From an uncultured Bacilli bacterium (GTDB lineage: Bacteria > Bacillota_I > Bacilli_A > RF39 > UBA660), in contig CATNCE010000002.1 of assembly GCA_950097225.1 (NCBI GenBank), positions 76,105 to 140,104 of the forward strand: a stretch of 64,000 nucleotides of DNA, in the 5' to 3' direction. A program made the translations under genes and the position numbers. Each line of letters starts with the position of its first letter. Positions within the stretch are counted from its first letter, which is position 1. The notes under the pieces are model-generated. The model was given only the letters and a program-made list of their open reading frames with translations. It had not been told where the DNA came from and did not search any database. Positions 633-31,900 of the stretch are shown here, in pieces.

Positions 633-2084
633 TTATAGCTGATTAAGTTTTTTATATTTCATTCCTTGAATTTTATATTTAGCGTTATTTACAGAAGACA
701 TATTTGGATACATTACATAGTCTTTAGTGGAACCAAAGAAGATGTAGTCTTGTCCGCCTGAGCCAGTTACTGATTGAGTCTTAATCACCCAGTTTGGATT
801 TTCTAATAATTCTTGAACACTTGATGTAACTAATTCACGAGGAATGGTTGTTGAATAGAATCCACTTACAGCATTTAAGATATTTGGAAATTTAATTATC
901 ATAGCTGGAGTTTTCATCTTATTAAGGATGGCTTTCATGATTTGGGCACAATTCTTTTGACGTTGGTTATCTCCAGATTTAAAAGCTAGGCGTTCACGAG
1001 CAACTGTAAGAGTTTGAATGCCATTTAAATACTGACATCCTTTTTTAACATGAAGTTTTTCTCCAATGTTATCATTGTAGGAATTTAATACCATCGAGTG
1101 TGTTGTCGTGTATTCTTGATCAGAGCAATAAGTAATTCCTCCTACAGCATTAACTAATTCAACTAAACTGCGTGTATTTATTTGAATATAATAATCTATT
1201 TTTATTCCAAATAATTTAGCAACAGAGGCAATATTAGTTTCAATGCCACGAGCTCCCATATCGCTTAATTTGTCGCGCTTACCAACACGAGCATCAGTAA
1301 TATAATAATCACGAGGAATAGTCGTTAAAAGAATTTCTTGATTAGTCTTATTTATGGAAACTAGCATATTAAAATCCATAAATGTGTTAGTAAAATCATA
1401 CCCACCGATAAAGATATTATAATATTCGCCTGGAGTTAATTTTTGATATTCTTGTTGTTGATACTCATCAAGATCTTCTTCCCCAATTGCCGAATTATCT
1501 AAAACAATATCAACATCTACTTTGACAATTACATTGTAGCTATTTATGTCTCGTCCATTGTTTTCCTTAAGGAAAGTATAGGTAGCATTATCAAGAAGAA
1601 TAACATCATGTGTGAATACAGTATCAAGATCTAATTCCTCTTTAAAAAGCATTATATTCATTAAATTTAGTTTCTTTAGAATATCATCCTTTTTATAAAG
1701 GTCTTGATAGTAAGCAATGGTCTTAGTAGTTAGTTCGCTTTCTAAAATATTATTTTTACTGATGATATAAAATGAGGTTTGATAAGTCTCATCGGCATTG
1801 CCAAATCCCTCATTAAAGAACTTATTTGTAACTGGTCCATATAGGGTCGTTCCAACAGCTAGTAAATTGATGATGAAGAACATCAAGAAACTTATGAATT
1901 TCATGAATCCCCTTCTAAATGCTAAAAGACCTAGGGCACCAATAAAATTGATGCTAGCCAAAGTAATAATAAAATAATTAAAATATTTAGTTGGTAAAAT
2001 ATGAAGATTGCCAATAATTCTGGTTACAGCAACTGATAATAAAATCATTAAGATTATTACGATAAATTTTCTTGATTTTTTCAT
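633..2084 (-). CDS. LytR-CpsA-Psr (LCP) family cell-wall polymer ligase
   Basis: N-terminal TM helices. C-terminal LCP signature IPRDYYITDARVGKRDKLSDMGARGIETNIASVAKLFGIKIDYYIQINTRSLVELVNAVGGI. Confidence 0.7.
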   Translation of the reverse strand: MKKSRKFIVIILMILLSVAVTRIIGNLHILPTKYFNYFIITLASINFIGALGLLAFRRGFMKFISFLMFFIINLLAVGTTLYGPVTNKFFNEGFGNADETYQTSFYIISKNNILESELTTKTIAYYQDLYKKDDILKKLNLMNIMLFKEELDLDTVFTHDVILLDNATYTFLKENNGRDINSYNVIVKVDVDIVLDNSAIGEEDLDEYQQQEYQKLTPGEYYNIFIGGYDFTNTFMDFNMLVSINKTNQEILLTTIPRDYYITDARVGKRDKLSDMGARGIETNIASVAKLFGIKIDYYIQINTRSLVELVNAVGGITYCSDQEYTTTHSMVLNSYNDNIGEKLHVKKGCQYLNGIQTLTVARERLAFKSGDNQRQKNCAQIMKAILNKMKTPAMIIKFPNILNAVSGFYSTTIPRELVTSSVQELLENPNWVIKTQSVTGSGGQDYIFFGSTKDYVMYPNMSSVNNAKYKIQGMKYKKLNQL

Positions 2085-2184
2085 AAACGCACCTCTAGGA
2101 TAATTATAGCATGATTGATTGCATTGAGTAAATCACAGATTATAAAAACATATAAAAAAAGCCATGTCTTAAACATGCCTTTAA

Positions 2185-3276
2185 TTATTTTTTTATTAAT
2201 ACTTTTGTGCCTAATCCTACGTATTCTGATAATTGTAGTGCATTTCTGTTGCGCATATTAATACAACCATGAGAACCATTAGTAAGATAAGTATTCCCAC
2301 CAATATCGGCCTCATCCTTCCAGCCGTGTTTAAATCCATCTTCGTGTTCATGATGTGTAGCATCGTGAAATCCTTCTCCGCCATTATATTTCATCATAAC
2401 ATCAACATAAGGGTTACCAGAAGTAATTAGCCTACGATTGTATGTGATATCATATATTTCGAAGACACCTTCATCACTTGCTCTTGAAGGCGTAGGTAAT
2501 CCTGTTGTAACTGGTACTTCCATGGCAACTTCATTATTTTGATATAGTCTTAGGAACTGATCACTAATATCAACGACTACACATGTTTCAGGCAATTCTT
2601 CAACACTATCTTTAGCAACGTACCCAATATATTCGTTAGTTTGAACTAAGTAATAATCATCCATTTCTGCATATACTTCAAAACATTCTAACTTATTTAT
2701 ATCAACTTCTTCATCATTTCCAGATATATTCAAGTAATATGGGATTGTAAGTTTAGTATCTTCTTTGGCATATAACACTTTAGTTATTGAGCTATCAATA
2801 TCATATACAGATTTTTCAGTAGCGTATTCATCGCTTATGTATCCAATTTGATCGTAGTATTGAACTTTATACCAACCATCAATATGCTCTAAAAGCTTAA
2901 GTTCACTATCTTCTGGTAATGCCCCAATGCGATTTCCGTTTTCATAATTATCACGAATATTAACATCGTCAGTGGCAACTACTACTGGTACAGATACAAT
3001 ATGATTCTTTTGTTTCTCAAGTTCAATTTCTATATCACCCAAGTTCTCTTCTTCTATTTGTTCATTAGGCTCGGGAAAGGTTTCTTCTAATACTATTTCA
3101 CTAGACTCTGAGCATTCACTTTCTACCCAATCATCACTTAACTGAATAGTATCGTCAAACACTTCTATTTCCTGTGTATTATCACTCATTGAATCAATAG
3201 ATGAACATCCTATTGTTCCCACATTTAATACAGCAATTAAAGCACTAATAAGAAATTTTTTCTTTGAATACTTCAT
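2185..3276 (-). CDS. Lipoprotein with C-terminal L,D-transpeptidase (YkuD) domain
   Basis: Lipobox-like signal (LNVGTIGCSS). C-terminal catalytic motif SHGCINMRN...LGTKVLI, typical of L,D-transpeptidases. Confidence 0.65.
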   Translation of the reverse strand: MKYSKKKFLISALIAVLNVGTIGCSSIDSMSDNTQEIEVFDDTIQLSDDWVESECSESSEIVLEETFPEPNEQIEEENLGDIEIELEKQKNHIVSVPVVVATDDVNIRDNYENGNRIGALPEDSELKLLEHIDGWYKVQYYDQIGYISDEYATEKSVYDIDSSITKVLYAKEDTKLTIPYYLNISGNDEEVDINKLECFEVYAEMDDYYLVQTNEYIGYVAKDSVEELPETCVVVDISDQFLRLYQNNEVAMEVPVTTGLPTPSRASDEGVFEIYDITYNRRLITSGNPYVDVMMKYNGGEGFHDATHHEHEDGFKHGWKDEADIGGNTYLTNGSHGCINMRNRNALQLSEYVGLGTKVLIKK

Positions 3277-3340
3277 CTTTAATCCCCTCTTTTTGCACGT
3301 TGTATTTTAATATAAAAAGAGGGGTTTGTCAAATTAGCAA

Positions 3341-4789
3341 TTAGTGCTTATTGGATAGTTTTAGAATTGAAATATTTATAATTGATTTTTTATCAATGAA
3401 AGTATTAATAAGCATAGTTAATATAACATATACTAAACTTCCTGTTATTATTTTTAAAATTAACATATATATGTAGTTTAGTGCCAATGCTTCAAGAAGG
3501 GAAACATTAATCACATACATGATAGTACCCACGAGTAAGTATTTAGTTAGACACATAAAATAGCGTTTAAAAGCAAGTTCATGATAAATACTGATTGTTT
3601 GGAATAATGCCACAGATAATTCTGCTATAAGGGTTCCAATAACTGCACCAATAACACCTATTGATTTTATTAAAAAATAATTGACGATAAAGTTGACTAG
3701 AGCTCCAATAATGGATGATGTAACATATATTTTATTTTTAGATTTTGGTATTAAATATTGGGTACGAATGACATTGGCATAACCAATAAAGATGATTGCA
3801 AATGATAAAAGAGATGTTAGTTTAATACATTCTTGGTAGTCATTGCCAAGAAATAAGGGAATAAACTCTTTAGATACAGATGATATGCCAAAGGCTAAGG
3901 CAACAGACAACCATAAAATAAACTCCATAGAATAATTAATGCTCTGAATAGCTTTCTCTTGCTCCTCTTTTTTCGCAAAAAGATTAGACATTCTCGGCAA
4001 CATAACTGTTCCTAAGGCATTTATTAGCCCTAGTGGGATATTTTTAATACGTTCTGAATATTCATAGTATCCAACATCTTGCATCGTTGACATAAAGCCA
4101 ATCATTATCTTATCCATGACAGTATATATACTAGTAGCAATTACTGGTATAAATAAAATAATGTTTTCCTTAAAATGTTTTTTTACATCAGATAATTTAG
4201 CTAATCTAACTTTTATTTTTCTTACTAAAAATGGCCATAAGCAAAGATTACTTATGAGCATACCTGATGATAATAATAAGACGTATTTAGATATATCGCT
4301 TGATTCTTTAATGAATGCAAATGTTGCAATAATAGTTAATATTTTAATAACACTGTTGCGGGTAACAGTTAGTTTAAATTCTTCTGTTCCAAAGAAAAAC
4401 CAGTTAACATCAAATATAGCCGATAAAATAAAAGGAAATTGTAGCCATAGATAAAACGTATCATTAAAACAATTAAGTAGCTGTAATACGATAAATGCTC
4501 CTATGAATATTATCCCTGTTATGAATTGCATCGTATATATTTCATTAAATGCTTTGTTTAGCTCTTCATGATTATCGCGAATTGCTGCAATATATTTATT
4601 TCCATAATTATTAAGTCCTAGCATAATCAGGATAACAAAATATTGAGCAATAGAATGTGTATATGAATAAATTCCAGTATTTTCTGCACCTAAAACACGC
4701 GCAACATATGGCGCGGTTATCAATGGTAATATTATTGTTAGAATTTGATATAAAACATTATATATGTAATTTTTTTTTACTGATTTCAT
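3341..4789 (-). CDS. wzx: Wzx-type polysaccharide flippase (MOP superfamily)
   Basis: 482 aa polytopic membrane protein. N-terminus YNVLYQILTIILPLITAPYVARVLGAENTGIYSY is typical of Polysacc_synt flippases. Confidence 0.7.
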   Translation of the reverse strand: MKSVKKNYIYNVLYQILTIILPLITAPYVARVLGAENTGIYSYTHSIAQYFVILIMLGLNNYGNKYIAAIRDNHEELNKAFNEIYTMQFITGIIFIGAFIVLQLLNCFNDTFYLWLQFPFILSAIFDVNWFFFGTEEFKLTVTRNSVIKILTIIATFAFIKESSDISKYVLLLSSGMLISNLCLWPFLVRKIKVRLAKLSDVKKHFKENIILFIPVIATSIYTVMDKIMIGFMSTMQDVGYYEYSERIKNIPLGLINALGTVMLPRMSNLFAKKEEQEKAIQSINYSMEFILWLSVALAFGISSVSKEFIPLFLGNDYQECIKLTSLLSFAIIFIGYANVIRTQYLIPKSKNKIYVTSSIIGALVNFIVNYFLIKSIGVIGAVIGTLIAELSVALFQTISIYHELAFKRYFMCLTKYLLVGTIMYVINVSLLEALALNYIYMLILKIITGSLVYVILTMLINTFIDKKSIINISILKLSNKH

Positions 4790-4790
4790 A

Positions 4791-5654
4791 CTATCTTTCC
4801 TTTAACTTAGCCATTATAATTTCTCTTGTTTGATCATCCAAATTGATTTTTCTAGCAAAGCAAAAATTAGAAGCTATTAATTCATCAACATCACTTTCGC
4901 TAAAAACATATGGGTTGCCCCTTTGCCAATCAATATATCTCTCACAGGCAATATAGTTATCGTCCATTTTATCATAAGATAAGATATTTATATTATTAGT
5001 CTTTAAAATAAGACTTTGAAGATAAAATTCATCAGAACTTCGCGTATATCGATAGCGTTTATAAATATGTTCTTTATTGGCGATAATAAGTTTAGAAAGA
5101 AAATTAGTAATGCTAAACCAATTAGCTCCACAAGCATATGTCTCATCTTTTATGCGATTAACATGAAATATTTTTTGGATATTAATATTGATTTTTTCAA
5201 GAATATCAAAAAAACGCGAGTGACGATTATATCTCTGGAATAAATAATAATACTTAATAAACTTTTCTTTATTAGCGGGAACACTTTTACTTTCAAAATG
5301 TACAAAGTTTTTATGGCTATTTTCAAAAAAAGTATGCAGTTCTTCGTTTGTTTTTAAGGGAAAATCACTTTCTGATAATAGATGATAATAACTATACTCG
5401 TTTTTTATTGCCTGTTCTAATAAAAAGATTTGACACATAGTTTGAGAAATATGAGCCCAAGAGATATCAAATTTTGAGAGAATGTAAATTGAGCTTTTGC
5501 TAACACATGATTCTATTTTACTTTTATCATATTTACATTTTTTATCAATATGGATATATATATCATGATTTTCATAATCGAGTTGTCTTAATAACTGATA
5601 TATTTTATCTGGTTTATATGTCATGATTAGATAAGCATGTTTATTGTTTTTCAT
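4791..5654 (-). CDS. Glycosyltransferase, GT14-like (core-2/I-branching enzyme family)
   Basis: N-terminus AYLIMTYKPDKIYQLLRQLDYENHDIYIHIDKK resembles the PF02485 branching-enzyme motif. Confidence 0.45.
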   Translation of the reverse strand: MKNNKHAYLIMTYKPDKIYQLLRQLDYENHDIYIHIDKKCKYDKSKIESCVSKSSIYILSKFDISWAHISQTMCQIFLLEQAIKNEYSYYHLLSESDFPLKTNEELHTFFENSHKNFVHFESKSVPANKEKFIKYYYLFQRYNRHSRFFDILEKININIQKIFHVNRIKDETYACGANWFSITNFLSKLIIANKEHIYKRYRYTRSSDEFYLQSLILKTNNINILSYDKMDDNYIACERYIDWQRGNPYVFSESDVDELIASNFCFARKINLDDQTREIIMAKLKER

Positions 5655-6777
5655 AGTTAATAGCTCTTTCTAAATATGAATATGCGTTTTCACGTAATTT
5701 AGAAATATTCGCATCGACAATAGTATAATCTATTGGTTTGGATAGCATTTCTTTATCAAGAGGAGCAGTCTCCTCGATAAAACGATCACTTAAGCCAAGC
5801 TGTGATAATATTGAGGAAGCACGATCATCTCCTTTAGTCATTCCATCATTTTTTATTACCCAAAACTTTTTATGATAAATGGTTGAGAAAACAGTTCCGT
5901 GGAACGATGAAGTGATTATCATCTCAGCATGTTTAACAATGTATAAAAAGCTTGCTGGCCCTTCACAATCTGGTAAAATGAAGCGACTATAACGACGATG
6001 AATAGTTGCCCAGCGTTTTCCATTGAATGTTATAACATCTAAATCAAATAGATCAGCAACTTTTTGAACAAAAGCATTTTCATTTTCAACATAGCCATAT
6101 GAATAGTAAAATATATATTTTCTTTTAATGTTAACGGGTTTGCTAAATTTATCATAATCTTCACTAGTTAATAATACGGTTGGATCGCATATTACTTCAA
6201 TTTCTTTATCTGTTAACTCTTGTAACCATTTTTGGCCATTGAATTCACGAACAGATAGCATATCGTAGTCTTCTAAATATTTTTTATATTGATCAACATC
6301 TTTGGCGTACTTAGTAATGCTTTTAGCTCCTAAACTTGGAGCATAGGCAATTTTTCTTTTGTTTGTAATGAATGGCAAAAAGTAAGCATCATCAGCATCA
6401 TTACAAGTGATATTCCATATTTGGTCACTTCCAGAAATAAAAATATCGAATTCTGGTTCAAGAGCCTCCATTCCTTCGATGCTTTTATAGCTCTTATCGG
6501 TCAATGGCAGATGTTTATTTTTAAATTCCTCATAGTCAAAATAGTTAGAATTAACAATTTTGAAATAGTAAAAATAAAGCATATTTTTAGCGATATTTTT
6601 TAAGCTGTTTTTAGGTAGGTAAAAAGCATATTTTTGATCTGAACCTTTATTGGCAAAATCGATAAATTGTACATTGGCATTAAAACGCGTTTCAATAATA
6701 GTTTTTAATGCTAATGATTGCAGCATAGAACCACAATTATGAGATGAATGAAAGGTAATTATTGCTACTTTTTTCAT
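5641..6777 (-). CDS. Polysaccharide pyruvyl transferase family protein
   Basis: N-terminus KVAIITFHSSHNCGSMLQSLAL resembles PF04230 pyruvyl transferases (CsaB/WcaK-like). Confidence 0.45.
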   Translation of the reverse strand: MKKVAIITFHSSHNCGSMLQSLALKTIIETRFNANVQFIDFANKGSDQKYAFYLPKNSLKNIAKNMLYFYYFKIVNSNYFDYEEFKNKHLPLTDKSYKSIEGMEALEPEFDIFISGSDQIWNITCNDADDAYFLPFITNKRKIAYAPSLGAKSITKYAKDVDQYKKYLEDYDMLSVREFNGQKWLQELTDKEIEVICDPTVLLTSEDYDKFSKPVNIKRKYIFYYSYGYVENENAFVQKVADLFDLDVITFNGKRWATIHRRYSRFILPDCEGPASFLYIVKHAEMIITSSFHGTVFSTIYHKKFWVIKNDGMTKGDDRASSILSQLGLSDRFIEETAPLDKEMLSKPIDYTIVDANISKLRENAYSYLERAINYEKQ

Positions 6778-7865
6778 ATTTTTTCTTCCTCCTCTTGGTT
6801 TTTAGGATATAGTAAATAACCAAAGCTTATTATGAAAGCATTATAGGTGACACGAAGTAAATAACTCTCAACTAATCCGTAGACTAAATAGACTCCTAAA
6901 ATTATTATCATAATTTTATTTTTCTCTTTGTAATTTTTATTAATAGCTACCATGTACATACCTAAAAATATGGATATAAATAGTATACCATCTTTTGAGA
7001 GCATCTGAATATAAACATTATCTACGGCATCGACACTGCGGCCAAAAAGAGTTAGTCCCCCACTTTGATAAGCATTAGCCATTAATTTGATTCTTCCTGT
7101 TGATTTACGATTAACCTCGGCAAGAAATTCATTGCCTGATAAAAACATATTTGAAACGAGAATAGAACCAAGAGTTAGCACAATTGGTAAGGCTATTAAA
7201 CTTTTTTTTACGACCTGTAAATTAATAACTTTTTCTTGAATAAACTTGTTAAAGAAAATGGTTATACCAAGTAAGATTAAGATGGCAAAAGCACTTCTAC
7301 TATCGGTTATAGTTAGTATTGCTCCCGCAGCAATAAACGTTATTAAACTATAAAAACGATTTATTTTAGTTCGCTTCAAATATAATAATTCCAAGACTAA
7401 TTGAACAACGCAAGCTGCTAAACGATTAGGATGCGCAAATCCAAGAGAATATCTTATGAATCCGCCCTTACGATACATGTTGTAATCTTGAGTAAGTCCA
7501 AGCAGCGAGGATGCAATAATAACTCCAAAGAAAAGTAAACGAGCTAAAAAAGTTTTTTTCATGAAACTATCATAGTCAACATGTTTAAAGGACATTACAA
7601 GTAAAAGAATATAAATAAGATTCTTTTGAGATTCCCGTAGATTAATAAGACATACAATGGTTGCAAATACAGCTATAAAAATAATGGTACTCTTGCGATA
7701 CTTAGGGGTTTGAAGTAAAAAGACAATCATTAAAGTGCAGATAGCTAGGTAGGAAGCTAATGCTAAAAATGGTTTGCAATAGCGGACATTAGAAAACATA
7801 TCTGAAAACATTAGCAACAGATAGGAAATTGAAAATAACCAAGTACTTAATTTGCTTTTAGTCAT
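6774..7865 (-). CDS. Wzy-like O-antigen/oligosaccharide polymerase or ligase (polytopic membrane protein)
   Basis: 363 aa with about 10 TM segments and a central loop (GFAHPNRLAA), as in O-antigen ligase/polymerase proteins. Located next to the flippase. Confidence 0.45.
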   Translation of the reverse strand: MTKSKLSTWLFSISYLLLMFSDMFSNVRYCKPFLALASYLAICTLMIVFLLQTPKYRKSTIIFIAVFATIVCLINLRESQKNLIYILLLVMSFKHVDYDSFMKKTFLARLLFFGVIIASSLLGLTQDYNMYRKGGFIRYSLGFAHPNRLAACVVQLVLELLYLKRTKINRFYSLITFIAAGAILTITDSRSAFAILILLGITIFFNKFIQEKVINLQVVKKSLIALPIVLTLGSILVSNMFLSGNEFLAEVNRKSTGRIKLMANAYQSGGLTLFGRSVDAVDNVYIQMLSKDGILFISIFLGMYMVAINKNYKEKNKIMIIILGVYLVYGLVESYLLRVTYNAFIISFGYLLYPKNQEEEEKI

Positions 7866-8814
7866 GTTTTATCATCCTTTTCATTTTTATTATCATATAA
7901 TAAAGTCTATAAATTCGCTTTCTAAGTAGTTTTATTAATAAGATATTTTTTGAACCTATTAGAGAATCATCAATCGGTGACTTTAATACCTCTTTTATCT
8001 TAGGCTCATTAAATGCTGTTTTGAATTCCCTGTAGTTAGAATTACTACTTTGAACATAATTTTTTAAATTAATATTGATTTTTTTGGTAATCATCGTATT
8101 TTTTTCTATACTACTAAATAAGTCAGTTGGAAAAAAATTAAAGACATAAAACGTATCATCTATGCGTCTTTTTACTTTATCAAAATGCATAACACGAGTT
8201 ATGCTATTAGTATTATCGGTCGTCATCACGTATCCATATTTAGGGATTGCTCCAATACTACTCGCATTATTATAGCATTCATAGTTAAATAATAGGTCTT
8301 CGCCATAAGATATATCTTCTTTAAAACGTATATTGGTAAGGATACTCTTTTTTATAAGTTGAGCAAAAACAACATTGAAACGGTTGTCCTTTTTTATATA
8401 GTAAAAAAAGTCTTGCATCGTTATCTCTCGTTCTTTAGAAAACCAGGTAATTGGGATAGTATCGTTTTTATAACCAGTTTTAATGATATCGTATTTATCT
8501 GTGTATTCCATTAATTCGCTAACATAGTTATTTTCGATGATATCGTCACTATCGACGAACATGATGTACTCGCCTTTGGCTTGATCTAACCCGTAATTTC
8601 TAGCACTGCTTACTCCCCCATTTTGCTTAGAAAATATTTTTATCCTTTTATCTAGTTTTTGATAATTATTCAAAACATCTAAACTATTATCGGTTGAGCC
8701 GTCATTGATGCAAAGGATTTCACACTCCTCACATTTAATGACAAGAAGCGATTCTAGGCATCGAGCTAAATATTGAGCTGAATTATATATTGGAATTATT
8801 ATACTCAATTTCAT
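7858..8814 (-). CDS. Glycosyltransferase family 2
   Basis: LSIIIPIYNSAQYLARCLESLL...NDGSTDNS...ARNYGL...FVDSDD (GT2 DxD architecture). Confidence 0.8.
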   Translation of the reverse strand: MKLSIIIPIYNSAQYLARCLESLLVIKCEECEILCINDGSTDNSLDVLNNYQKLDKRIKIFSKQNGGVSSARNYGLDQAKGEYIMFVDSDDIIENNYVSELMEYTDKYDIIKTGYKNDTIPITWFSKEREITMQDFFYYIKKDNRFNVVFAQLIKKSILTNIRFKEDISYGEDLLFNYECYNNASSIGAIPKYGYVMTTDNTNSITRVMHFDKVKRRIDDTFYVFNFFPTDLFSSIEKNTMITKKININLKNYVQSSNSNYREFKTAFNEPKIKEVLKSPIDDSLIGSKNILLIKLLRKRIYRLYYMIIKMKRMIKHD

Positions 8815-9815: not shown

Positions 9816-10531
9816 TTTGTCCTCCTTTGATTTTTCTTATGTTGATGTAATAGTTTTAAAATTAAAAGGCGATTAGTAATCATCTTTAATACACTATTTC
9901 GATTAAAATCTGACGAATTAGAGCCGTGACGGCGATACAAGAGTAATTGTTCAGGAATAAAGGTTACTTTTCCTTTTCTTAAAGCGATTAAGCCTATCCA
10001 CTGATCATGCATCATCATTTCTTTAGGGATAGGAACAATCAAACTCTTTAATTCGCTTCGAAAAGTCATACAGCATCCCATAAACGAGTTTTTAATGATA
10101 TTATTAAGAAAACCATTTTTAGAATTGCGAAAACGAAAAAATGATTCATTAGTTATATTCAAAGATTCATCAGTGATATTGCAATCATGAACAGTTAACA
10201 ATAACTTTGGGTCCTCATTAAAATACGAAACAACAGTTGCAACCTTATTTTCTTTCCATACATCGTCTTGATCAGCTAAAAATATTAAATCCCCAGTGGT
10301 ATGGTTAATAGCATTTTCAAAATTTTTTATTATGCCTTGTTTTGGCCCTGGTATTATTTTTATTCGCGGATCTTGAAGGGAGGCGATAATAGATAAAGTA
10401 TTATCGGTACTTCCATCATCACTTATTATAATTTCGTCATCATTTTTTATATTCTTGAGGACGCTTTCTAGTTGCTCAAAGATATATTTCTCGCCATTAT
10501 ATGTTGCAATCGCGACTGATATTTTATTCAT
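9812..10531 (-). CDS. Glycosyltransferase family 2
   Basis: ISVAIATYNGEKYIFEQLESVL...DDGSTDNT. The start is taken at the internal ATG (MNKISV...) so the gene does not overlap the upstream gene. The ORF-track start is 10558. Confidence 0.75.
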   Translation of the reverse strand: MNKISVAIATYNGEKYIFEQLESVLKNIKNDDEIIISDDGSTDNTLSIIASLQDPRIKIIPGPKQGIIKNFENAINHTTGDLIFLADQDDVWKENKVATVVSYFNEDPKLLLTVHDCNITDESLNITNESFFRFRNSKNGFLNNIIKNSFMGCCMTFRSELKSLIVPIPKEMMMHDQWIGLIALRKGKVTFIPEQLLLYRRHGSNSSDFNRNSVLKMITNRLLILKLLHQHKKNQRRTK

Positions 10532-11681: not shown

Positions 11682-11757
11682 AAAGAAACACTCCCTATAA
11701 AAAAGCTATATGCAGTGAATGCATATAGCTTATCTTTCATCTGCTACTTTAATTATA

Positions 11758-24710: not shown

Positions 24711-25559
24711 CTATAGTTGTTGTAATAATTTCTCTAATGACTTTATTTTTTCTTGTTGCTTGAATAGTTTACTTTTCCTTTGGGAACTACTACTCTTTTT
24801 AACAGAAGTTCCCTCTTGATGAAACACACGCAAATTTGGATCATAAATACTTGTTAGATGATCTTTTATTAACCTATCATATAAGAATTCTTCTTCATGG
24901 AATAGGAATGTATCATCGTAAAATACATCTGAATATTTGTCATAATATTTTTTAGAAAAAATGATGGCACATCCATGCAATGGAACATTGTGTTTAATAT
25001 CAGGAGCATTGGATAGACGTGTTGGCTTTTTAATAAGATGCTTTATTTTAATGTACATTTCTAATAAAAAATAAAGCATTATATTATTATAAATTTTAAC
25101 TAGCTTCTTACTTTTTCTTATTGCCGATATTATATTATCTTTTCCATATATGACAGGAAAAGGATTGCAGGAATCCCCAGGGGATTCAATCCATGGACCT
25201 AGCATATCAAATTGATATTTTTGATAATCATTATAGATAATTTCAATAAAATTCGACTGGGTTATGTAAACATCATTATTAATAACAGCAAGAAAATCGG
25301 GATTGTACTTTGATATAGCATAATGCGCTCCAATATTATTGGATTTTGCAAATCCCAAATTATCATCAAGCACAATGATATCCTTTGTATATTGTTCTAT
25401 CATTTCTTTTTGTTCATCATCTAGGGTGTGATTATCGACGACAATAGTATTGTACTCTCCATCAAGAGTATCTTTGATTGTAGATAAACACTTAAGAGTT
25501 TCATCAATTGTTTTATAGTGCAAAATTACAAAAGTAACCATTCTATACCTCTTCAGCAA
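24711..25559 (-). CDS. GT2 glycosyltransferase (RgpB-like)
   Basis: MVTFVILHYKTIDETLKCLSTIKD...VVDNHTLDDE. Translationally coupled with the upstream ABC permease. Confidence 0.6.
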   Translation of the reverse strand: MLKRYRMVTFVILHYKTIDETLKCLSTIKDTLDGEYNTIVVDNHTLDDEQKEMIEQYTKDIIVLDDNLGFAKSNNIGAHYAISKYNPDFLAVINNDVYITQSNFIEIIYNDYQKYQFDMLGPWIESPGDSCNPFPVIYGKDNIISAIRKSKKLVKIYNNIMLYFLLEMYIKIKHLIKKPTRLSNAPDIKHNVPLHGCAIIFSKKYYDKYSDVFYDDTFLFHEEEFLYDRLIKDHLTSIYDPNLRVFHQEGTSVKKSSSSQRKSKLFKQQEKIKSLEKLLQQL

Positions 25560-26328
25560 AGCCTTTCGACAATTTTCTAAATATCAACAAGCCTACTATT
25601 GATAATAACAACCCTCCACCAATAACAATTAAAAGAGAAATAAAATTAGGGAGTGATTTCCAATATAAAATATCCCTGTAACTAGTTATAATGGTCGTCA
25701 TTGGATTTAAGTTAATAAGCGCGGTAATCCATGTTGGGGCCGAAGAAAAAATATCCATAGAATATAAAATTGGCGTCCCGTAAAAAAGCATTTGAATAAA
25801 AAAATTAATAATATATTCTAAGTCACGAATATAGACATTTATAGCACTAGTAATGAAGATGATTCCTAAAGTTATTAAATATTGAGCAATTATTACTAAG
25901 GGTAAAAAAAGAATGTTCAGGCTAATGCCTATACCACTAAAAATAATGAACAGGAACATAACTATACAAGAAATTAAGAAATTAACAGCTCCACTTGTTA
26001 CAACAGAAATTGGCAATATTTCTCTTGGAAAGAAAACTTTTTTTATAATAGGTCCATTGCCAATTATAGTAAATGTTCCTTGAGCAATATTAGTTGTAAA
26101 CCAAGTCCATGGTAAAATTCCAATGATCAAGAATGTCGTGTAGTGTTCAATATTAGCTCCACGCATGAGGAAAGGAAATACAATTGCATAAACTAGTGTC
26201 ATAAGTAAAGGACTTACAAACGACCAAAGAATTCCTAAAAAGGACCCTTTGTATTTTCCTCTTATTTCTTTTTTTACATTTGATTTTAATAACTCACGAT
26301 AATTGTATAAATCTTTAAAAAGTTGCAT
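25543..26328 (-). CDS. ABC-2 type polysaccharide/teichoic-acid export permease (TagG/Wzm-like)
   Basis: 261 aa with 6 TM helices and an ABC-2 signature. Confidence 0.85.
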   Translation of the reverse strand: MQLFKDLYNYRELLKSNVKKEIRGKYKGSFLGILWSFVSPLLMTLVYAIVFPFLMRGANIEHYTTFLIIGILPWTWFTTNIAQGTFTIIGNGPIIKKVFFPREILPISVVTSGAVNFLISCIVMFLFIIFSGIGISLNILFLPLVIIAQYLITLGIIFITSAINVYIRDLEYIINFFIQMLFYGTPILYSMDIFSSAPTWITALINLNPMTTIITSYRDILYWKSLPNFISLLIVIGGGLLLSIVGLLIFRKLSKGFAEEV

Positions 26329-26346: not shown

Positions 26347-27078
26347 TTAAAATTGGGAAAGATATTTATCTACTACCTCATCTATTTTTCCGTCCATTTC
26401 AACAATACCTTCTTTAATCCAAATGCCTCTTGTACATATTTGTCTTATAGTCTCTAGAGAATGAGAAACTATAACGATAGTCTTATCACTATCTCGCAAT
26501 TCTTTTAGTTTATTAAAGCATTTGTCTTGGAAGTGTTGATCTCCAACGGCAAGAATTTCATCAATTAGCAAAATCTCGGCGTCGACGTTAATCGCGATGG
26601 AGAATGCAAGACGCATGTATTGTCCAGAAGAATAAGTGCGAACAGGATTATCAATAAATTCTTCTAATTCAGAAAAAGAAATTATATCGTCTAATCGTCT
26701 ATCTATTTCTTTTCTAGTAAGCCCAAAAATAGATGAATTAAAATAAATATTTTCGCGCCCAGTAAAATCTTGATGGAAGCCGGCTCCAAGTTCTAGAAGT
26801 GAGGTTAATTTTCCTTTAGTTTCAACACTTCCTTTAGTTGGATAAATTATTTTAGTCATTAATTTTAGTAATGTAGATTTACCAGAACCATTAACACCAA
26901 TTAGAGCAACTGTCTCCCCTTTTTTTATGTCTAGATTTATGTTGTCTAAAACCGTCCTAGTTTCTGATTTTTTGTGATTCCAAAATACCAATCTTTCTTT
27001 TAAAGTACTAGGCTTATCATAAAATAGTTTAAATGATTTAGTCATATTTTTTACTTCAATAGAATTTCCTTTTTTCAT
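26347..27078 (-). CDS. ABC transporter ATP-binding protein (TagH/Wzt-like, no C-terminal carbohydrate-binding domain)
   Basis: Walker A GVNGSGKSTLLKLM, signature YSSGQYMRLAFS and Walker B ILLIDEILAVGD. Confidence 0.9.
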   Translation of the reverse strand: MKKGNSIEVKNMTKSFKLFYDKPSTLKERLVFWNHKKSETRTVLDNINLDIKKGETVALIGVNGSGKSTLLKLMTKIIYPTKGSVETKGKLTSLLELGAGFHQDFTGRENIYFNSSIFGLTRKEIDRRLDDIISFSELEEFIDNPVRTYSSGQYMRLAFSIAINVDAEILLIDEILAVGDQHFQDKCFNKLKELRDSDKTIVIVSHSLETIRQICTRGIWIKEGIVEMDGKIDEVVDKYLSQF

Positions 27079-27092: not shown

Positions 27093-28088
27093 TTATTTGT
27101 GTAGCGTGTCTCCTATTTTATTGATAAATTTATAGCGCTTACTATTCTTTATTTGAGCAAGTTCTTGATTTTTTGCGGCTAATTCTTCCTTTAATTCGCC
27201 GTTAGCTTTTTCTAATTCAGCATTACGCGCTATTAATTCACAAAACGTCTGATTCATAACATCAAAGTAATCTGTATGATCAGTTATTTTTTCTGTTGTT
27301 TTCGGTTTATTACCTGATGATAAAGTTATTTTAAAAATAGTCTGGAGAGTTAAGTAGTCTTCTAACTTTCCTGTTATATTAAATAATTTGTAGTCTTGAT
27401 CATCGATAAAATATGGTGGTTTTATCAATATTCTTTCACATAACTTTGCAGCTAAATTCATTTTATATTGCGAGTTAATATTGGCAATCATGTCTAAAAA
27501 TGAATTTGCAGTGAAGAAACGAAGATGTGTACTATCAAGTATTCCCCAACGTGAATAATTAAATTCGCCATTGATGAGAGATTTTATGATATCTATATGG
27601 GCAATATTGGGAACAGATACAATTATGCTTCCGCCCTTTTTTAACATCTTTGCTGCATTAATTAATGCCATCCATGGTTCTACTAGGTGTTCTAAAACGT
27701 CTGCAAAAATAATAAAATCATATCTCTCTTTTTGATTAAATAATTTTTTAAAATCCGCGTTATTTTCATCAGTTATGGAGAAGTTATATATTTCGCGATA
27801 TATATTCTTTTTCTTAGCTACTTCGTATGCTTTTTTGTCGTATTCAATTCCGTCAACGATGCAGTTTTTATACCTTTTTAAAACACTACCTAAAATGCCA
27901 CTTGCACAGCCCACATCAAGAACTAAGCTATTATCTTTAATTTGACGAATAACGGCTGTATGAGCATCATTTCGCCTTTCTTCATCAAATTCATATTCTT
28001 GTTCATTGTAGTCATAGTTGTTCTCCTGAACGACTTTGGCTAAAGCATTTACTTCAGAACTTCCTAATTCAAAAAAAGCCTTTTTCAT
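27093..28088 (-). CDS. Class I SAM-dependent methyltransferase with C-terminal coiled coil
   Basis: VLDVGCASGILGSV SAM-binding motif. C-terminal heptad-rich ELEKANGELKEELAAKNQELAQIKN. Confidence 0.7.
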   Translation of the reverse strand: MKKAFFELGSSEVNALAKVVQENNYDYNEQEYEFDEERRNDAHTAVIRQIKDNSLVLDVGCASGILGSVLKRYKNCIVDGIEYDKKAYEVAKKKNIYREIYNFSITDENNADFKKLFNQKERYDFIIFADVLEHLVEPWMALINAAKMLKKGGSIIVSVPNIAHIDIIKSLINGEFNYSRWGILDSTHLRFFTANSFLDMIANINSQYKMNLAAKLCERILIKPPYFIDDQDYKLFNITGKLEDYLTLQTIFKITLSSGNKPKTTEKITDHTDYFDVMNQTFCELIARNAELEKANGELKEELAAKNQELAQIKNSKRYKFINKIGDTLHK

Positions 28089-28188: not shown

Positions 28189-28782
28189 TTAATGAAAATA
28201 AATTGGACTATTTTTTAGAGTTTTGTATTTTTCAATATAAGGTGGCATATTTACATCACTTTCGGATATGTCGTATTGACTTAAAACTTGTAAAAAGACA
28301 TCAAAACATTCTGCACTTTTCCAAGATACTCCACATTGATAGTCACTGGCACTTTCTATATCGATATAGTATTGAGCCAAAGTATTGTCTTCAAGACAAA
28401 CTAGACCATAGGCAAGTCCTGAGGGAATATAGATTTGCAAGCCTAAATTTAATACTTGACAATCAGGAGAAGTTAAGACTATTTTAAGGGTTCGTCCATA
28501 GGTCAAGGATGATGCTCGCATATCTAAGGCAACTATAACCATACTGCCTTTAATTACGCCAATTAAACTATTTTGTGCTAATGGCGGCAGTTGAAAGTTC
28601 ATCCCGGTTAGATAGCCACGATTGTAGGTATTTATTCGGTGTTCACGAACATTTTTAAATCCTAAATCACGAATATCATTAACTAGTAGCGTATAGTTGT
28701 TTTTATTATAATCGGGAGCTATTATGTAACACCCTTCAATGAATGTTTCTAAAGCTGTTGCAGAAGAAAGGATGATTTCCAT
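28189..28782 (-). CDS. rmlC: dTDP-4-dehydrorhamnose 3,5-epimerase-like (RmlC cupin)
   Basis: 197 aa; NRGYLTGMNFQ resembles the RmlC RG(L/V)H(F/Y)Q motif. Adjacent to rmlD. Confidence 0.6.
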   Translation of the reverse strand: MEIILSSATALETFIEGCYIIAPDYNKNNYTLLVNDIRDLGFKNVREHRINTYNRGYLTGMNFQLPPLAQNSLIGVIKGSMVIVALDMRASSLTYGRTLKIVLTSPDCQVLNLGLQIYIPSGLAYGLVCLEDNTLAQYYIDIESASDYQCGVSWKSAECFDVFLQVLSQYDISESDVNMPPYIEKYKTLKNSPIYFH

Positions 28783-29676
28783 TTATTTACGATCCTCTAA
28801 TGTACGCTTTTTTGTTTCGCTTTTATTTAAGTAGTTACCAACATACTCTTTTGTTGCAGCTTGCCAATCTGGTAAGGGCTCAAACCCAGCTGTAGTTATG
28901 CTTGATTTATCTAAACAATTATTTAAAGGACGGGAAGCACGAGTTTGATACTCACTGCTAGGAACTGGCAAAACATTAGTAGATAACCCAGCAACATGAA
29001 CAATATAACGCGCAAAGTTATACCATGAAGTAAAACCTTCGTTACTCGTATGATATAAGCCATATTTTTCCGTTTCTGCCATATCAACTAAAAGTCTAGC
29101 TAAATGGCGCGAATATGTTGGACTGCCAAATTGATCGTCTACTACTTTAATAATTTTTTTAGAATTAGCTAAATGCAGTATCGTTTTCACAAAATTTTTA
29201 GTGCCATGTTCTCCAAATACCCAAGACGTACGAGCAATAAAAGATTTAGGATACTGACGGACAATGTCTTCGGCTAAAGCCTTAGTCTCTCCATAAAAAT
29301 TAATGGGATTAACTTTATCGGAAATAGTATATAAATCTTCATTAGTACCATCAAACACATAATCTGTTGAAACATGAACAAGTTTAGCGCCAACTGCAGC
29401 AGCCCCATCTGTAATGCTGCTAGCCCCTAAAACGTTAACTTTATAACACTCATCCTTGTTGTCTTCGGCAGCATCTACGTTAGTATAAGCAGCACAATGG
29501 AAAATAACATCAGGTTTTATCGTCTTAATAACTGCTACTACATCTTCATAATTAGTGATATTAAGCATATCATGCGTTGGCATATAAATCTCGGTATCAC
29601 TGCCATAACGCGAATCAAGTTCTAAAAATATATCGTGCCCTACTTGCCCACTTCCTCCAGTTATTAAATACTTCAT
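28783..29676 (-). CDS. rmlD: dTDP-4-dehydrorhamnose reductase
   Basis: MKYLITGGSGQVGHDI Rossmann N-terminus, 297 aa, RmlD-like throughout. Confidence 0.8.
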   Translation of the reverse strand: MKYLITGGSGQVGHDIFLELDSRYGSDTEIYMPTHDMLNITNYEDVVAVIKTIKPDVIFHCAAYTNVDAAEDNKDECYKVNVLGASSITDGAAAVGAKLVHVSTDYVFDGTNEDLYTISDKVNPINFYGETKALAEDIVRQYPKSFIARTSWVFGEHGTKNFVKTILHLANSKKIIKVVDDQFGSPTYSRHLARLLVDMAETEKYGLYHTSNEGFTSWYNFARYIVHVAGLSTNVLPVPSSEYQTRASRPLNNCLDKSSITTAGFEPLPDWQAATKEYVGNYLNKSETKKRTLEDRK

Positions 29677-29759: not shown

Positions 29760-30599
29760 TTACTTTTTAAAAACATAGGGAATTAGATTAATATAATAAA
29801 ATATTTTAAATAATATAATATCGAATATATTAGCTTTATTATAATGACGTTCATAGTAAAGTTGACTTTTCTTATATATCTTATATTTCTTTTTTAAAGA
29901 CATATTAGTTCCAATCGAAGCATCATGAATATGTTCGGCATAAACAGTTGTATTAACCATACTATATTTATTAATCTCATCTAACTTACGAGCCAAGATA
30001 TTTTCTTCATAGTATAAGAATGTATTTTCATCGAAGTAATCGATACTAGCTAAAGTACTCCCTTCTATCATAAAAAAGCAACCATATATTACATCGACAT
30101 ACGCTTTTTCTTGCTGAAAATAATTGGCACTGTAGCTTAGGAATTTATCGCGATAGAAGCGATTAAAAAACGGAATATTAGCAAGTAGATCATCGTATTT
30201 TGTTGTGAGTTTCCACCCATATTTAAAAGTATCCCCTTCTTTAATTTTAGGCATAACGCATTTGATGTTTTTATCTATGGTCTTAGCCATAGTTATGATT
30301 ACTTCTTCGTTTGGAATACAAATATCAGAGTTACTAATGCAGATATAGGCATTATCCAGTTCCGAATTTATTAATTTAGCTCCTTGATTTAGGGCATAGG
30401 CATAGCCTTTATTGTCTTTATTGGCGATGATGGTAAGTTTTTCGCTCCTTATTTTTTTTAGCTCCCGACAGGAGGTGTCAGTCGAATTATTATCGACAAC
30501 AACTATTTTTTTGATAGTTTGATACTCTTCAATACTATGAATGAGTTTTTTGGTATTAGTAAGATCATTGTAGTTTACTATTACAAAACCAATGTTCAT
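29760..30599 (-). CDS. Glycosyltransferase family 2
   Basis: IGFVIVNYNDLTNTKKLIHSIEEY...VVVDNNSTD. Confidence 0.75.
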   Translation of the reverse strand: MNIGFVIVNYNDLTNTKKLIHSIEEYQTIKKIVVVDNNSTDTSCRELKKIRSEKLTIIANKDNKGYAYALNQGAKLINSELDNAYICISNSDICIPNEEVIITMAKTIDKNIKCVMPKIKEGDTFKYGWKLTTKYDDLLANIPFFNRFYRDKFLSYSANYFQQEKAYVDVIYGCFFMIEGSTLASIDYFDENTFLYYEENILARKLDEINKYSMVNTTVYAEHIHDASIGTNMSLKKKYKIYKKSQLYYERHYNKANIFDIILFKIFYYINLIPYVFKK

Positions 30600-31900
30600 G
30601 TTATTTCTTGTCCTTTCTTTAATAAATTATTTATAATATAGGCTATATAGAAGGCAACAGCCGGATGAAATAAGGAATGACCAGCCATATAACTTATTGC
30701 TAATAATAATAGTAAAGAAAGACCTAGAAGAATGATTTCATCATTTAAAATCATTCGTGGTTTTCTTAGGAATAAACGGACGAATTTATATAATAAATAT
30801 ATTGGTAGAGAAAACTCGATAATTAAGCCAATAATACCATAAAACATGTATAAATCATGAATATCACGTTCGTTGATATGACTTATTAAAATGCCATTTA
30901 AGTAATTACCTTGATCGGTTAAACCAAATAGTTTATGAAACGATCCAGCATTCTTGTATAGCTCTTTATTGATAGCTACAAAATCACTGCGTCCATTGAA
31001 TACTAAAGCATTATTTACTTCTTTTTGCATTTCCGATTCACTTATAGATGGATTTTTATTTAAAGACGTATTAATAGATTGCTCATATATTTCTAACATA
31101 TTATTATATATTGGTAAACGTTTTATGTTGAAGGTAATAAGCCCTAGAATAATTAATAATGGCAAAATATACTTAGTTTTATAACTACGTTTACGATCGA
31201 ATATGGAAGCAATAAAATGATATATTGGGTATCCTGCTAGTAAAGCGATGACACCAATAATACTTGTCTTAGTTCCCAGTAAACTTAAAAATAAGGCTAG
31301 AAGTGCCAAGACTAAAAAATCAATTAGTTTTTTATTTTTTATAAAATTAATAATTTGATAAGTTAGCAAAGCAATTAAAACAGAGCCATATTCATTAGCG
31401 GAAAAGAAGTATCCCAAGTAGCCTTTATGGATACAAGGATAAAAATCATCATATGAACAATAAGAAGTATGAGTAAATACGGATATTAAGAAAGATATAC
31501 TTACGATTAGTCCCATATTTCTAAATACTTTAGTATTAATTGCCTTATTTTCTTGCATATAAAGATAGAAAAACAATAAGACAATAGGAAAATACAACAT
31601 ACGGAAGAGATTGTAGCCTTGTTTAAAGATGCTAAATGAATCTTTAAGGAAATAATTACCAGTTAATGTAATAAGACAATAAAGGGCCCATATAGCTAAA
31701 TATCCATATACTCGTTTATCTTTCTTGGATATGACATAAATACCTGCATAAACTAAAAATAGAAAGCGGATAATCATGGCACAAGAAATTGGCAAGGCAA
31801 AATGGGCTTTCATTACACCTGTAATAATATCGATAACTGGTTGAAAAATAAAATAAGCAGCTATTACATGGTTGTTATATAATCTTTTCATTTTCATCAT
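30596..31900 (-). CDS. Polytopic membrane protein (first gene of the locus; polymerase/ligase-like)
   Basis: 434 aa with 10 or more TM helices. 4-bp overlap with the downstream GT2. Confidence 0.3.
   Translation of the reverse strand: MMKMKRLYNNHVIAAYFIFQPVIDIITGVMKAHFALPISCAMIIRFLFLVYAGIYVISKKDKRVYGYLAIWALYCLITLTGNYFLKDSFSIFKQGYNLFRMLYFPIVLLFFYLYMQENKAINTKVFRNMGLIVSISFLISVFTHTSYCSYDDFYPCIHKGYLGYFFSANEYGSVLIALLTYQIINFIKNKKLIDFLVLALLALFLSLLGTKTSIIGVIALLAGYPIYHFIASIFDRKRSYKTKYILPLLIILGLITFNIKRLPIYNNMLEIYEQSINTSLNKNPSISESEMQKEVNNALVFNGRSDFVAINKELYKNAGSFHKLFGLTDQGNYLNGILISHINERDIHDLYMFYGIIGLIIEFSLPIYLLYKFVRLFLRKPRMILNDEIILLGLSLLLLLAISYMAGHSLFHPAVAFYIAYIINNLLKKGQEIT

Follow-up and report, generated by a model that had tools for sequence, protein, structure and literature searches.

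A probable EPA-like locus with two glycopolymer pathways in an uncultured Bacilli bacterium

The window analysed here is a stretch of 64,000 nucleotides (about 29% G+C) of contig CATNCE010000002.1, from assembly GCA_950097225.1 of an uncultured Bacilli bacterium, probably a member of the Erysipelotrichales. Its segment 633-31900 holds two adjoining export and assembly routes for surface glycopolymers, one dependent on an ATP-binding cassette (ABC) transporter (unit A) and the other on a Wzx flippase and a Wzy-like polymerase (unit C). We propose, with a probability of roughly 0.55, that this segment is a two-pathway cell-wall glycopolymer locus comparable to that of the enterococcal polysaccharide antigen (EPA), the two products being likely combined outside the membrane and fixed to peptidoglycan by an LCP enzyme. 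The proposal is based on gene content, on an arrangement that recurs in a second species and on likeness to EPA at the level of gene classes.

All the 28 open reading frames (ORFs) of at least 100 amino acids (aa) in 633-31900, of which 27 lie on the minus strand and one (DUF6020) on the plus strand, were scanned with Pfam and NCBIfam and their scores were read against the curated cut-offs. The locus is genuine, as the same gene order is found in contigs 99.1-99.6% identical to it, from assemblies of 12 sequencing runs. In wall polysaccharides of two parts, the backbone is conserved and the decoration variable; such polymers are known mainly from ovoid Lactobacillales, serving there as phage receptors and as a shield from immune attack. 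The locus suggests the same design, with different building blocks, in a different and largely uncultured gut lineage. All the enzyme classes and the two-pathway logic are already known and the polymers are ordinary in kind. The new elements are the Erysipelotrichales-like uncultured lineage, the scaffold formed by a WaaL-like head and a DUF6020 junction, the presence of Stealth and pyruvyl transferases in this context and an undescribed family of GT-C glycosyltransferases.

Transcription units and signals

Unit A runs from 31900 to 14331 and unit C from 12411 to 3341, both on the minus strand. The following signals delimit or punctuate them.

14309-14348, both strands: bidirectional terminator-like hairpin (16 bp, A/U-rich, dG -14.5 kcal/mol, z -5.2)
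12481..12453, minus strand: sigma-70 promoter of unit C (TTGACA-17-TATAAT, 12/12 consensus)
11703-11731, minus strand: hairpin and U-run between the initiating transferase and Cps2T genes (12-bp perfect stem, dG -17.8 kcal/mol, z -3.3)
3332..3304, minus strand: promoter of the L,D-transpeptidase gene (11/12 consensus)

The hairpin at 14309-14348 overlaps the stop codons of both the last unit A gene and the convergent DUF6020 gene, and an equivalent hairpin also lies 3' of DUF6020 in the related contig L113. Unit C starts 42 nt downstream of its promoter, the hexamers of which are identical in L113 and L115. At the other end, a terminator-like hairpin (31981..31953) parts unit A from the two genes upstream, which are served by a separate 12/12 promoter. 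The first-pass annotation of this DNA had described one co-oriented block, a description that has to be abandoned in view of the plus-strand DUF6020 gene between the halves, the separate promoters and the bidirectional hairpin. It had also envisaged, as the outcome contrary to its reading, two unrelated operons separated by a strong terminator: the units are indeed separately promoted and terminated, but they are not unrelated (see below). The hairpin at 11703-11731, which has no counterpart in L113, may be an internal attenuator through which the initiating transferase is expressed above the rest of unit C.

Separately, a 24-nt stretch of the 5' leader before the initiating transferase (CAAAAGGGAAATCTAGTGTGGAGG; window 12412-12452, L113 9389-9432) is identical in both species, whereas the proteins concerned are only 55-86% identical, which hints at a regulatory or ribosome-binding element.

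A scaffold conserved in a second species

Comparison with relatives shows a layout made of a conserved head, a variable body, a conserved junction and a second variable body. The head opens unit A and contains the following genes.

30596..31900, minus strand: WaaL/O-antigen-ligase-like membrane protein, first gene of the unit A head (PF13425, 156 bits)
29760..30599, minus strand: family 2 glycosyltransferase (GT2) of 279 aa (PF00535; TIGR01556 rhamnosyltransferase 35.7 bits, cut-off 200.55)
28783..29676, minus strand: RmlD, dTDP-4-dehydrorhamnose reductase (TIGR01214, 290 bits, above the cut-off of 224)
28189..28782, minus strand: RmlC-type dTDP-sugar 3,5-epimerase (PF00908, 67 bits; below the TIGR01221 cut-off)
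27093..28088, minus strand: S-adenosylmethionine-dependent methyltransferase beside the exporter (Methyltransf_23/31/11 matches)
26347..27078, minus strand: ABC exporter ATPase, TagH/Wzt type, 243 aa, nucleotide-binding domain only (PF00005)
25543..26328, minus strand: ABC-2 permease, TagG/Wzm type (PF01061; 62-87% identical in relatives)

The junction, where unit A ends and unit C begins, includes three genes.

15418..16383, minus strand: GtrB/PgfS-like polyprenyl-phosphate hexose synthase, a GT2 (PgfS 248 bits and ArnC-like 142 bits, both below NCBIfam cut-offs)
12633-14327, plus strand: DUF6020 polytopic membrane protein with about 11 transmembrane (TM) segments (PF19484, 108 bits)
11758..12411, minus strand: small phosphoglycosyl transferase (Bac_transf) of 217 aa, short single-TM form (PF02397, 224 bits; matches the C-terminal domain of WbaP/EPS sugar transferases)

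Head genes are 54-86% identical in two further metagenome-assembled genomes (MAGs) labelled Bacilli or Erysipelotrichales (L031 and L032), except for the methyltransferase (43%, and absent in L032) and RmlC (32-37%). In both MAGs the head lies after NusB and RDD genes, and in L031 after the series PBP5-ThyX-RDD-NusB-ASST; different glycosyltransferases follow it in each, L032 representing a third head with another body. The WaaL-like protein (54-59%) occupies the same position in L031 and L032, where the head GT2 is 59% identical; the ABC ATPase reaches 79-86% in relatives, and in L024 and L031 the methyltransferase keeps the same position.

The locus of the second species (species 2) was rebuilt from L031 and L113/L115, which overlap at 99.9% nucleotide identity and thus belong to one species; contigs L113-L115 come from GCA_910587065.1 and a metagenome of the Joint Genome Institute (JGI). 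Identities along its head are 59% for the PF13425 protein, 59% for the GT2, 55% for RmlD, 43% for the methyltransferase and 72-85% for the ABC proteins. At its junction, the GtrB-like gene (86%; 84-86% in L024 and L113) ends one minus-strand unit, the DUF6020 homologue (55%, same position in L113-L115) follows on the opposite strand, and the initiating transferase of 217 aa (78% in L113) starts the other minus-strand unit. After the initiator, unit C of species 2 encodes WecG, a GT4, EpsG, a GT2, a pyruvyl transferase and Wzx, all either 25-39% identical to the window's proteins or unrelated to them (27% for the pyruvyl transferase, 25% for Wzx); the pyruvyl transferase gene, near the 3' end, directly precedes Wzx, whereas in the window one gene (GT14) stands between the two. 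In place of the window's enzymes, its backbone body carries DUF2142, Glf (UDP-galactopyranose mutase) and enzymes of family GT4, among them one with two domains. Chromosomal site, upstream neighbours, head and junction are thus shared by species 2, with both bodies replaced, and the persistence of this layout in a second species argues for functional coupling of the two units. An earlier view of the two halves as unrelated neighbours was dropped once species 2 showed the same arrangement.

The same comparisons bear on a competing explanation that we consider possible but clearly less probable, namely two independent wall or surface polymers that share a glycan island and are each attached to peptidoglycan alone. 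One would be an ABC-exported teichoic-acid-like or O-antigen-like glycan and the other a Wzx/Wzy capsule or a secondary cell-wall polymer that is pyruvylated, their adjacency arising from shared precursors (dTDP-rhamnose, undecaprenyl phosphate) and from recombination hot-spot behaviour. Such an explanation suits the separate promoters, the terminator and the opposite-strand gene between the units. It also suits GCA_017484065.1 ('Bacilli bacterium'; L026/L027), in which a body cassette 48-79% identical to that of the window is found by itself, no head gene (WaaL-like, RmlCD, methyltransferase), initiating transferase or Wzx lying within 10 kb of it, as well as the Clostridia and Lachnospiraceae, in which modules of a phosphoglycosyl transferase (PGT) and a Cps2T-type enzyme sit in ordinary Wzx loci without ABC units. 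Furthermore, pyruvylated polymers are known as stand-alone ligands of SLH-domain proteins (PMC6030368). The EPA-like proposal is weakened by the separate transcription of the units, by the solitary cassette and by the ABC-free modules, and other points weigh against it too: (i) the conserved adjacency of both units is seen in two species only; (ii) no initiating enzyme for polymer A, the product of unit A, is encoded in the block; (iii) searches of the PDB with the GT2 enzymes return generic GT2 relatives only, donor sugars being unreadable from sequence; (iv) the links of DUF6020 to GT-C or Wzy_C families are faint; and (v) the analysis gave no evidence for covalent joining of the two polymers. 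On the other side, what speaks against two independent polymers is that the head, junction, initiator and promoter occur together at the same site in species 2 despite replacement of both bodies, and that the initiating transferase is 78% identical against 25-39% for the rest of unit C, as is the case with EpaR in EPA.

Two further observations concern the junction. In L113 and L114 (11734-12789), the GtrB-like and DUF6020 genes are separated by a PDDEXK_2 transposase-like gene that is absent from L115, so that the junction tolerates insertions in species 2 (two of its three contigs). In the relative represented by L024 and L025, whose GT-C protein is 72% identical, both contigs end within about 65 bp past the GtrB-like gene. 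In a ranking that puts the longest flanks first, this suggests that a repeat, or sequence varying among strains, occurs at that species' junction.

Candidate ligases and other conserved proteins

The WaaL-like protein had been overlooked in the first-pass annotation, together with the methyltransferase, the GtrB-like GT2, the two GT-C proteins (PMT_2 and 621 aa), DUF6020 and the YkuD L,D-transpeptidase. A sequence search of the PDB with the WaaL-like protein gave no relatives; its AlphaFold2 model (predicted local distance difference test, pLDDT, 88.5) has a single significant fold match in the PDB, WaaL itself (7TPG, E 6.8e-4). Ligase, polymerase and O-oligosaccharyltransferase roles of such a protein are indistinguishable by sequence or fold. 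In three lineages the gene accompanies the ABC head, and unit C has a Wzy candidate of its own (Wzy_C-like in the window, EpsG in species 2), which makes the WaaL-like protein a reasonable candidate for transferring a glycan linked to undecaprenyl diphosphate (Und-PP) to an acceptor.

The other candidate ligase is DUF6020, which is paired with the highly conserved GtrB-like enzyme. The GtrB-like gene itself sits in unit A, with no space beside it for a small partner ORF. Invariant residues of DUF6020 are D147 and K244-D245; one of the 21 members of the family also matches DUF2142 and one also matches PMT_2. Scans of the genome and metagenome collections with the single protein gave no matches. 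DUF6020 may be an extracytoplasmic transferase or ligase, or else a side-chain transferase.

Regarding the other head proteins, the head GT2 is possibly a WbbL-like adaptor rhamnosyltransferase, on weak evidence, and solved RmlC structures in the PDB match the RmlC-type epimerase at E ~1e-11. By analogy with EpaN and WsaE, the methyltransferase is a candidate chain-end O-methyl capping enzyme. The ABC ATPase scores 210-218 bits with NCBIfam TagH models and 187 bits with the galactan Wzt model, all below cut-offs. Since the GT2-RmlD-RmlC set is conserved beside variable bodies, rhamnose in unit A may serve only as an adaptor.

The Wzx/Wzy-dependent unit and the 3' end of the locus

After the initiating transferase, unit C and the two genes that follow it are composed as below.

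10524..11681, minus strand: Cps2T/WchF-type beta-1,4-rhamnosyltransferase, a DUF1972 GT4 (NF046071 equivalog, 652 bits, cut-off 500)
9812..10558, minus strand: GT2 of the repeat unit (PF00535; called as 239 aa in identical contigs)
8823..9815, minus strand: Stealth hexose-1-phosphate transferase (CR1 to CR4 all above Pfam gathering cut-offs)
7858..8814, minus strand: GT2 of the repeat unit (PF00535, 117 bits)
6774..7865, minus strand: candidate Wzy-like polymerase of 363 aa, with about 7 TM in a crude hydropathy scan (weak Wzy_C match, E 7e-4, below cut-off; position within the Wzx unit)
5641..6777, minus strand: polysaccharide pyruvyl transferase (PF04230, general family, 116 bits)
4791..5654, minus strand: GT14 (Core-2/I-branching family) glycosyltransferase (PF02485, 57 bits)
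3341..4789, minus strand: Wzx flippase (PF01943, 125 bits)
2185..3276, minus strand: L,D-transpeptidase (YkuD) with SH3 domains (PF03734, PF08239)
633..2084, minus strand: LCP glycopolymer-to-peptidoglycan transferase (PF03816, 103 bits)

Most of the earlier gene list is borne out by Pfam and NCBIfam: RmlD, the RmlC-like epimerase, the ABC pump, Bac_transf, Wzx, Stealth, the pyruvyl transferase, GT14, two Acyl_transf_3 proteins and the LCP enzyme. The absence of rmlA and rmlB from the window likewise holds among the ORFs scanned. For the Wzy-like polymerase, a 7-TM protein with a Wzy_C match exists, but the match is weak and below the cut-off. The Stealth protein has GNPTAB and CpsY as relatives in the PDB, and the LCP protein aligns over its full length to Cps2A (128 bits, below cut-off). 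The GT2 at 9812..10558 is probably a protein of 239 aa starting at an internal ATG.

Cps2T is the pneumococcal beta-1,4-rhamnosyltransferase, and the Cps2T-type enzyme of unit C certainly requires rhamnose. It carries the motif GGTNPSLIE with the WchF-type Ser; a published comparison places Ser at that position in WchF-like enzymes and Gly in GacB/RgpA-like ones. No sequence-level relatives of this protein were found in the PDB. A genome scan retrieved relatives at most 69% identical, located in ordinary Wzx loci and informative for the PGT-Cps2T module only. In the 11 related loci considered (Clostridia, Lachnospiraceae, Lactococcus, an Anaeroplasmataceae MAG), the Bac_transf homologue is immediately upstream of the Cps2T homologue in seven and within about 1.5 kb in an eighth (L015); in the Bacillus locus L016 it is about 7 kb away.

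These assignments undo most of the rhamnan reading, according to which an RgpA/RgpB/RgpF polyrhamnose core would be combined with a lactococcal-type phospho-pellicle, and which we now regard as very unlikely. In its favour are rmlC and rmlD inside unit A, two GT2s with faint rhamnosyltransferase matches, and the ABC exporter with the LCP enzyme. Nevertheless, the sole DUF1972 enzyme, previously called RgpA, is a Cps2T equivalog with the WchF motif and stands in the Wzx/Wzy unit after the initiating transferase; the 'RgpF-like' label has no basis, as none of the 28 ORFs matches PF05045 at E<=0.001; and the 'RgpB-like' label, resting on 27.7-35.7 bits against the TIGR01556 cut-off of 200.55 for two small GT2s, is not confirmed. 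Without an RgpF homologue the name 'rhamnan' is unproven, and with faint GT2 scores and two-domain GT2s that resemble generic GT2 structures only, a polyrhamnose backbone is unsupported. Moreover, the same head is followed in species 2 by a body with Glf and GT4 enzymes, and the lactococcal polysaccharide pellicle (PSP) starts on undecaprenyl phosphate (Und-P) through WpsA/WpsB, not through a phosphoglycosyl transferase.

The body of the ABC-dependent unit and an undescribed GT-C family

Between the ABC exporter and the hairpin, unit A contains the GtrB-like gene given above and seven others.

24711..25559, minus strand: GT2 of the backbone body, 282 aa (PF00535; 50-61% identical in L024 and L026)
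22751..24697, minus strand: two-domain GT2 of 648 aa, candidate backbone polymerase (two PF00535 stretches; 65-66% identical in L024 and L026)
21635..22744, minus strand: Acyl_transf_3 O-acyltransferase (PF01757, 61 bits)
19949..21634, minus strand: two-domain GT2 of 561 aa, candidate backbone polymerase (two PF00535 stretches; 68-76% identical in L024 and L026)
18069..19934, minus strand: predicted GT-C-fold membrane glycosyltransferase of 621 aa, about 13 TM, undescribed family (sub-threshold Acyl_transf_3 match only)
16403..18004, minus strand: PMT_2 GT-C glycosyltransferase (PF13231; 48-70% identical in L024 and L026)
14331..15380, minus strand: Acyl_transf_3 O-acyltransferase, last gene of unit A (PF01757, 88 bits)

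The ABC proteins, the GT2, both two-domain GT2s, the 621-aa GT-C, PMT_2 and the GtrB-like enzyme are, taken together, 48-87% identical in two other lineages. The GT2 of 282 aa is the one that reaches 27.7 bits with TIGR01556, and the PDB relatives of the 648-aa GT2 are generic GT2s (GalT1, chondroitin synthase, TarS).

The 621-aa protein, on the evidence of its structural model, is a GT-C enzyme: it has a predicted polytopic fold and, in its first outer loop, an acidic motif, and a partner gene encodes a polyprenyl-phosphate-sugar synthase. Its AlphaFold2 model has a pLDDT of 90.7 and its top PDB folds are DPY19, AftA, Pmt4 and AftD. Residues D113-E114 are invariant within the sequence WDEFSHWG, the family motif being WDE[FY]SHW. 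A GtrB-like gene adjoins the homologue in three of four other lineages (P0010, P0049, P0048) and is one gene apart in the fourth (P0004), as in the window. Profile comparisons of the family with DUF6020 and with PMT_2 showed no similarity. At least 395 relatives of the family occur in JGI metagenomes, and bins of Bacilli, Clostridia and Candidatus Saccharibacteria contain annotated members. No Pfam model covers it, and we flag it as an undescribed GT-C family common in Firmicutes and Saccharibacteria metagenome bins. A metagenome scan with the family profile returned 80 distant loci of at most 40% identity, in mixed contexts and too diverged for a test of coupling between the units.

Resemblance to known systems

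In Enterococcus faecalis, the EPA rhamnose backbone is O-methyl-capped, made by epaA-epaQ and ABC-exported. EpaB is WbbL-like, EpaN and EpaO are multi-domain (two-domain) enzymes, and the GT-C proteins EpaP and EpaQ are proposed ligators of decorations; EpaR, the priming enzyme, is highly conserved and stands first in a variable unit that also encodes a flippase and a homologue of O-antigen ligases, and an LCP enzyme takes part in the system. We compared the locus with EPA through published descriptions of gene classes. On these terms, both systems have two adjacent units with two transport systems; an ABC backbone unit that encodes a methyltransferase, glycosyltransferases of two domains and a GtrB-like enzyme and ends in GT-C membrane proteins; a conserved priming phosphoglycosyl transferase at the head of a variable Wzx/Wzy-like unit for phosphate-containing repeats; and LCP attachment. 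The window differs in that the block has no EpaA-type initiator, its methyltransferase is a protein of its own, the backbone body varies from one species to another, the ABC unit opens with a WaaL-like gene over and above the decoration unit's Wzy-like gene, the junction has DUF6020 on the opposite strand, phosphate would be introduced by Stealth and not by LicD or glycerol-phosphate (GroP) transferases, and pyruvylation is added.

The lactococcal cwps locus of L. lactis shares a conserved 5' part and a variable 3' part, an ABC-exported chain and a Wzx-flipped oligosaccharide, GT-C enzymes and a phosphate-containing outer polymer. However, lactococcal PSP begins on Und-P via WpsA/WpsB (a GacI/GacJ-like pair) and is polymerised and ligated by GT-C enzymes, whereas unit C starts with a phosphoglycosyl transferase and the ABC unit is without RgpA and RgpF. 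Such a start implies an Und-PP-linked product, as with EpaR. Since the lactococcal system differs at this defining step of initiation, we read the locus as EPA-like. Of the lactococcal/enterococcal two-part design put forward in the first-pass annotation, what stands is the adjacency conserved in a second species and the likeness to EPA; the lactococcal half does not, as initiation differs.

Other systems share parts of the set. The Rgp/Gac cell-wall polysaccharides of streptococci and lactococci have in common with the locus the dTDP-rhamnose genes RmlD/RmlC and an RgpC/RgpD-type ABC exporter; they differ by a DUF1972 GlcNAc-beta-1,4-rhamnosyltransferase of RgpA/GacB type, here missing from the ABC unit, and by RgpF. 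The WchA-WchF (Cps2E-Cps2T) capsule loci of Streptococcus pneumoniae likewise have an initiator followed by the Cps2T equivalog, Wzx, Wzy and a Cps2A-like LCP, and Stealth genes (wcwK/wefC) are known in loci of this type. By contrast, no CpsB/CpsC/CpsD-type regulator (Wzz, kinase or PHP family) was matched among the block ORFs, the LCP gene is at the 3' end, the initiator is of the short single-TM form and rmlC/rmlD belong to the neighbouring ABC unit. With the pyruvylated secondary cell-wall polymer pathway (TagA/CsaB/Wzx/Wzy), the locus shares a pyruvyl transferase before Wzx and, in species 2, a WecG/TagA-family enzyme after the initiator; it differs by its Bac_transf initiator in place of TagO, by a general PF04230 match and by the absence of any SLH-domain protein seen in the window.

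The S-layer glycan (slg) clusters known from Geobacillus stearothermophilus and Paenibacillus alvei are also similar: in them too, a WbaP-like initiator and a Wzy_C-family transferase occur together with rml genes, Wzm/Wzt and methyl capping. They raise the alternative, which we judge unlikely, that unit A is devoted to slg-type protein O-glycosylation, the glycan, built on a lipid carrier and possibly primed by the nearby WbaP-like transferase, being methyl-capped, exported by Wzm/Wzt and moved onto a surface protein by the WaaL-like protein as an O-oligosaccharyltransferase. The gene classes do correspond to those of the G. stearothermophilus cluster, which has rml genes, a methyl cap, Wzm/Wzt, the Wzy_C-domain protein WsaB and the WbaP-like WsaP (PMC2943079), and the tie between the WaaL-like gene and the ABC head in three lineages, whatever follows, would suit this role. 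Yet no S-layer or other target gene is adjacent, the upstream proteins of 430 aa and 530 aa having no signal peptides; no tetratricopeptide-repeat (TPR) partner was seen; and, unlike in slg clusters, an LCP gene closes the locus and GT-C side-chain enzymes typical of wall polysaccharides are present.

Proposed assembly of the two polymers

Under the EPA-like proposal, to which we now return, sugars, capping and covalent joining are deduced from gene classes. Briefly, polymer A would be made in six steps: (i) an enzyme encoded outside the block would provide the primer; (ii) the small head GT2 would add a rhamnose adaptor from dTDP-rhamnose finished by RmlC and RmlD; (iii) one single-domain GT2 and the two two-domain GT2s would elongate the chain in the cytoplasm; (iv) the methyltransferase would cap it; (v) the Wzm/Wzt-type pump would export it; and (vi) outside, the GT-C enzymes would add hexose, with the GtrB-like enzyme supplying Und-P-hexose as donor, while the Acyl_transf_3 proteins would acylate the product.

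Polymer C would begin with Und-PP-hexose made by the small phosphoglycosyl transferase, to which the Cps2T-type enzyme would add beta-1,4-rhamnose, the two GT2s and GT14 further sugars, Stealth a hexose-1-phosphate and the pyruvyl transferase a ketal pyruvate, before Wzx would flip the unit and the Wzy-like protein polymerise it. On the membrane's outer face both polymers would then be combined, and the LCP enzyme would fix them to peptidoglycan. The joining ligase could be DUF6020 or the WaaL-like head protein, the latter suited to a donor linked to Und-PP.

In its most specific form, which we hold to be doubtful, the proposal would describe a clade of uncultured Erysipelotrichales-like bacteria with a fixed scaffold (the WaaL-like protein, rhamnose adaptor module and ABC pump on one side, the GtrB-like enzyme, DUF6020 and priming transferase on the other) around swapped bodies, in which the WaaL-like protein or DUF6020 ligates a Wzy-made pyruvylated phospho-polysaccharide onto the ABC-exported backbone. 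If true, this would place an O-antigen-ligase-type joining step inside the assembly of a Gram-positive wall polysaccharide. The main value of the locus is to offer these two proteins as comparative candidates for the step that ligates decoration to backbone.

Flanking region

Upstream of unit A, the window contains several features outside the locus.

31963-34844: two paralogous acidic helical proteins of 430 aa and 530 aa
34905-36613: frameshifted arylsulfotransferase-like gene
40201-41952: ThyX-family protein of 583 aa
42115-52658: split gene of a PBP5-type D-Ala-D-Ala carboxypeptidase
42878-44566: large serine recombinase, in the PBP5 insert
45813-46418: fragment of a type IV secretion coupling protein, in the PBP5 insert

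The proteins of 430 aa and 530 aa match no family, look cytoplasmic and are encoded by an operon with a perfect sigma-70 promoter (34901..34873) and a terminator (31981..31953). They were considered as members of the locus and ruled out by this promoter and terminator of their own, by their lack of a signal peptide and by their lack of conservation at the site in relatives. The arylsulfotransferase-like gene has a 1-nt deletion at about 35269 relative to the 99.1% identical contig L018, where the protein is 567 aa long; it is either a pseudogene or a sequencing error. The ThyX-family protein contains two Thy1 stretches and is about twice the usual length, with a 611-aa version in L031. Finally, the PBP5-type gene is split by an insert of about 9.4 kb with a G+C content of 22-25%, residues 13-117 being encoded at 52658..52344 and residues 109-375 at 42915..42115, whereas relatives have an intact gene there.

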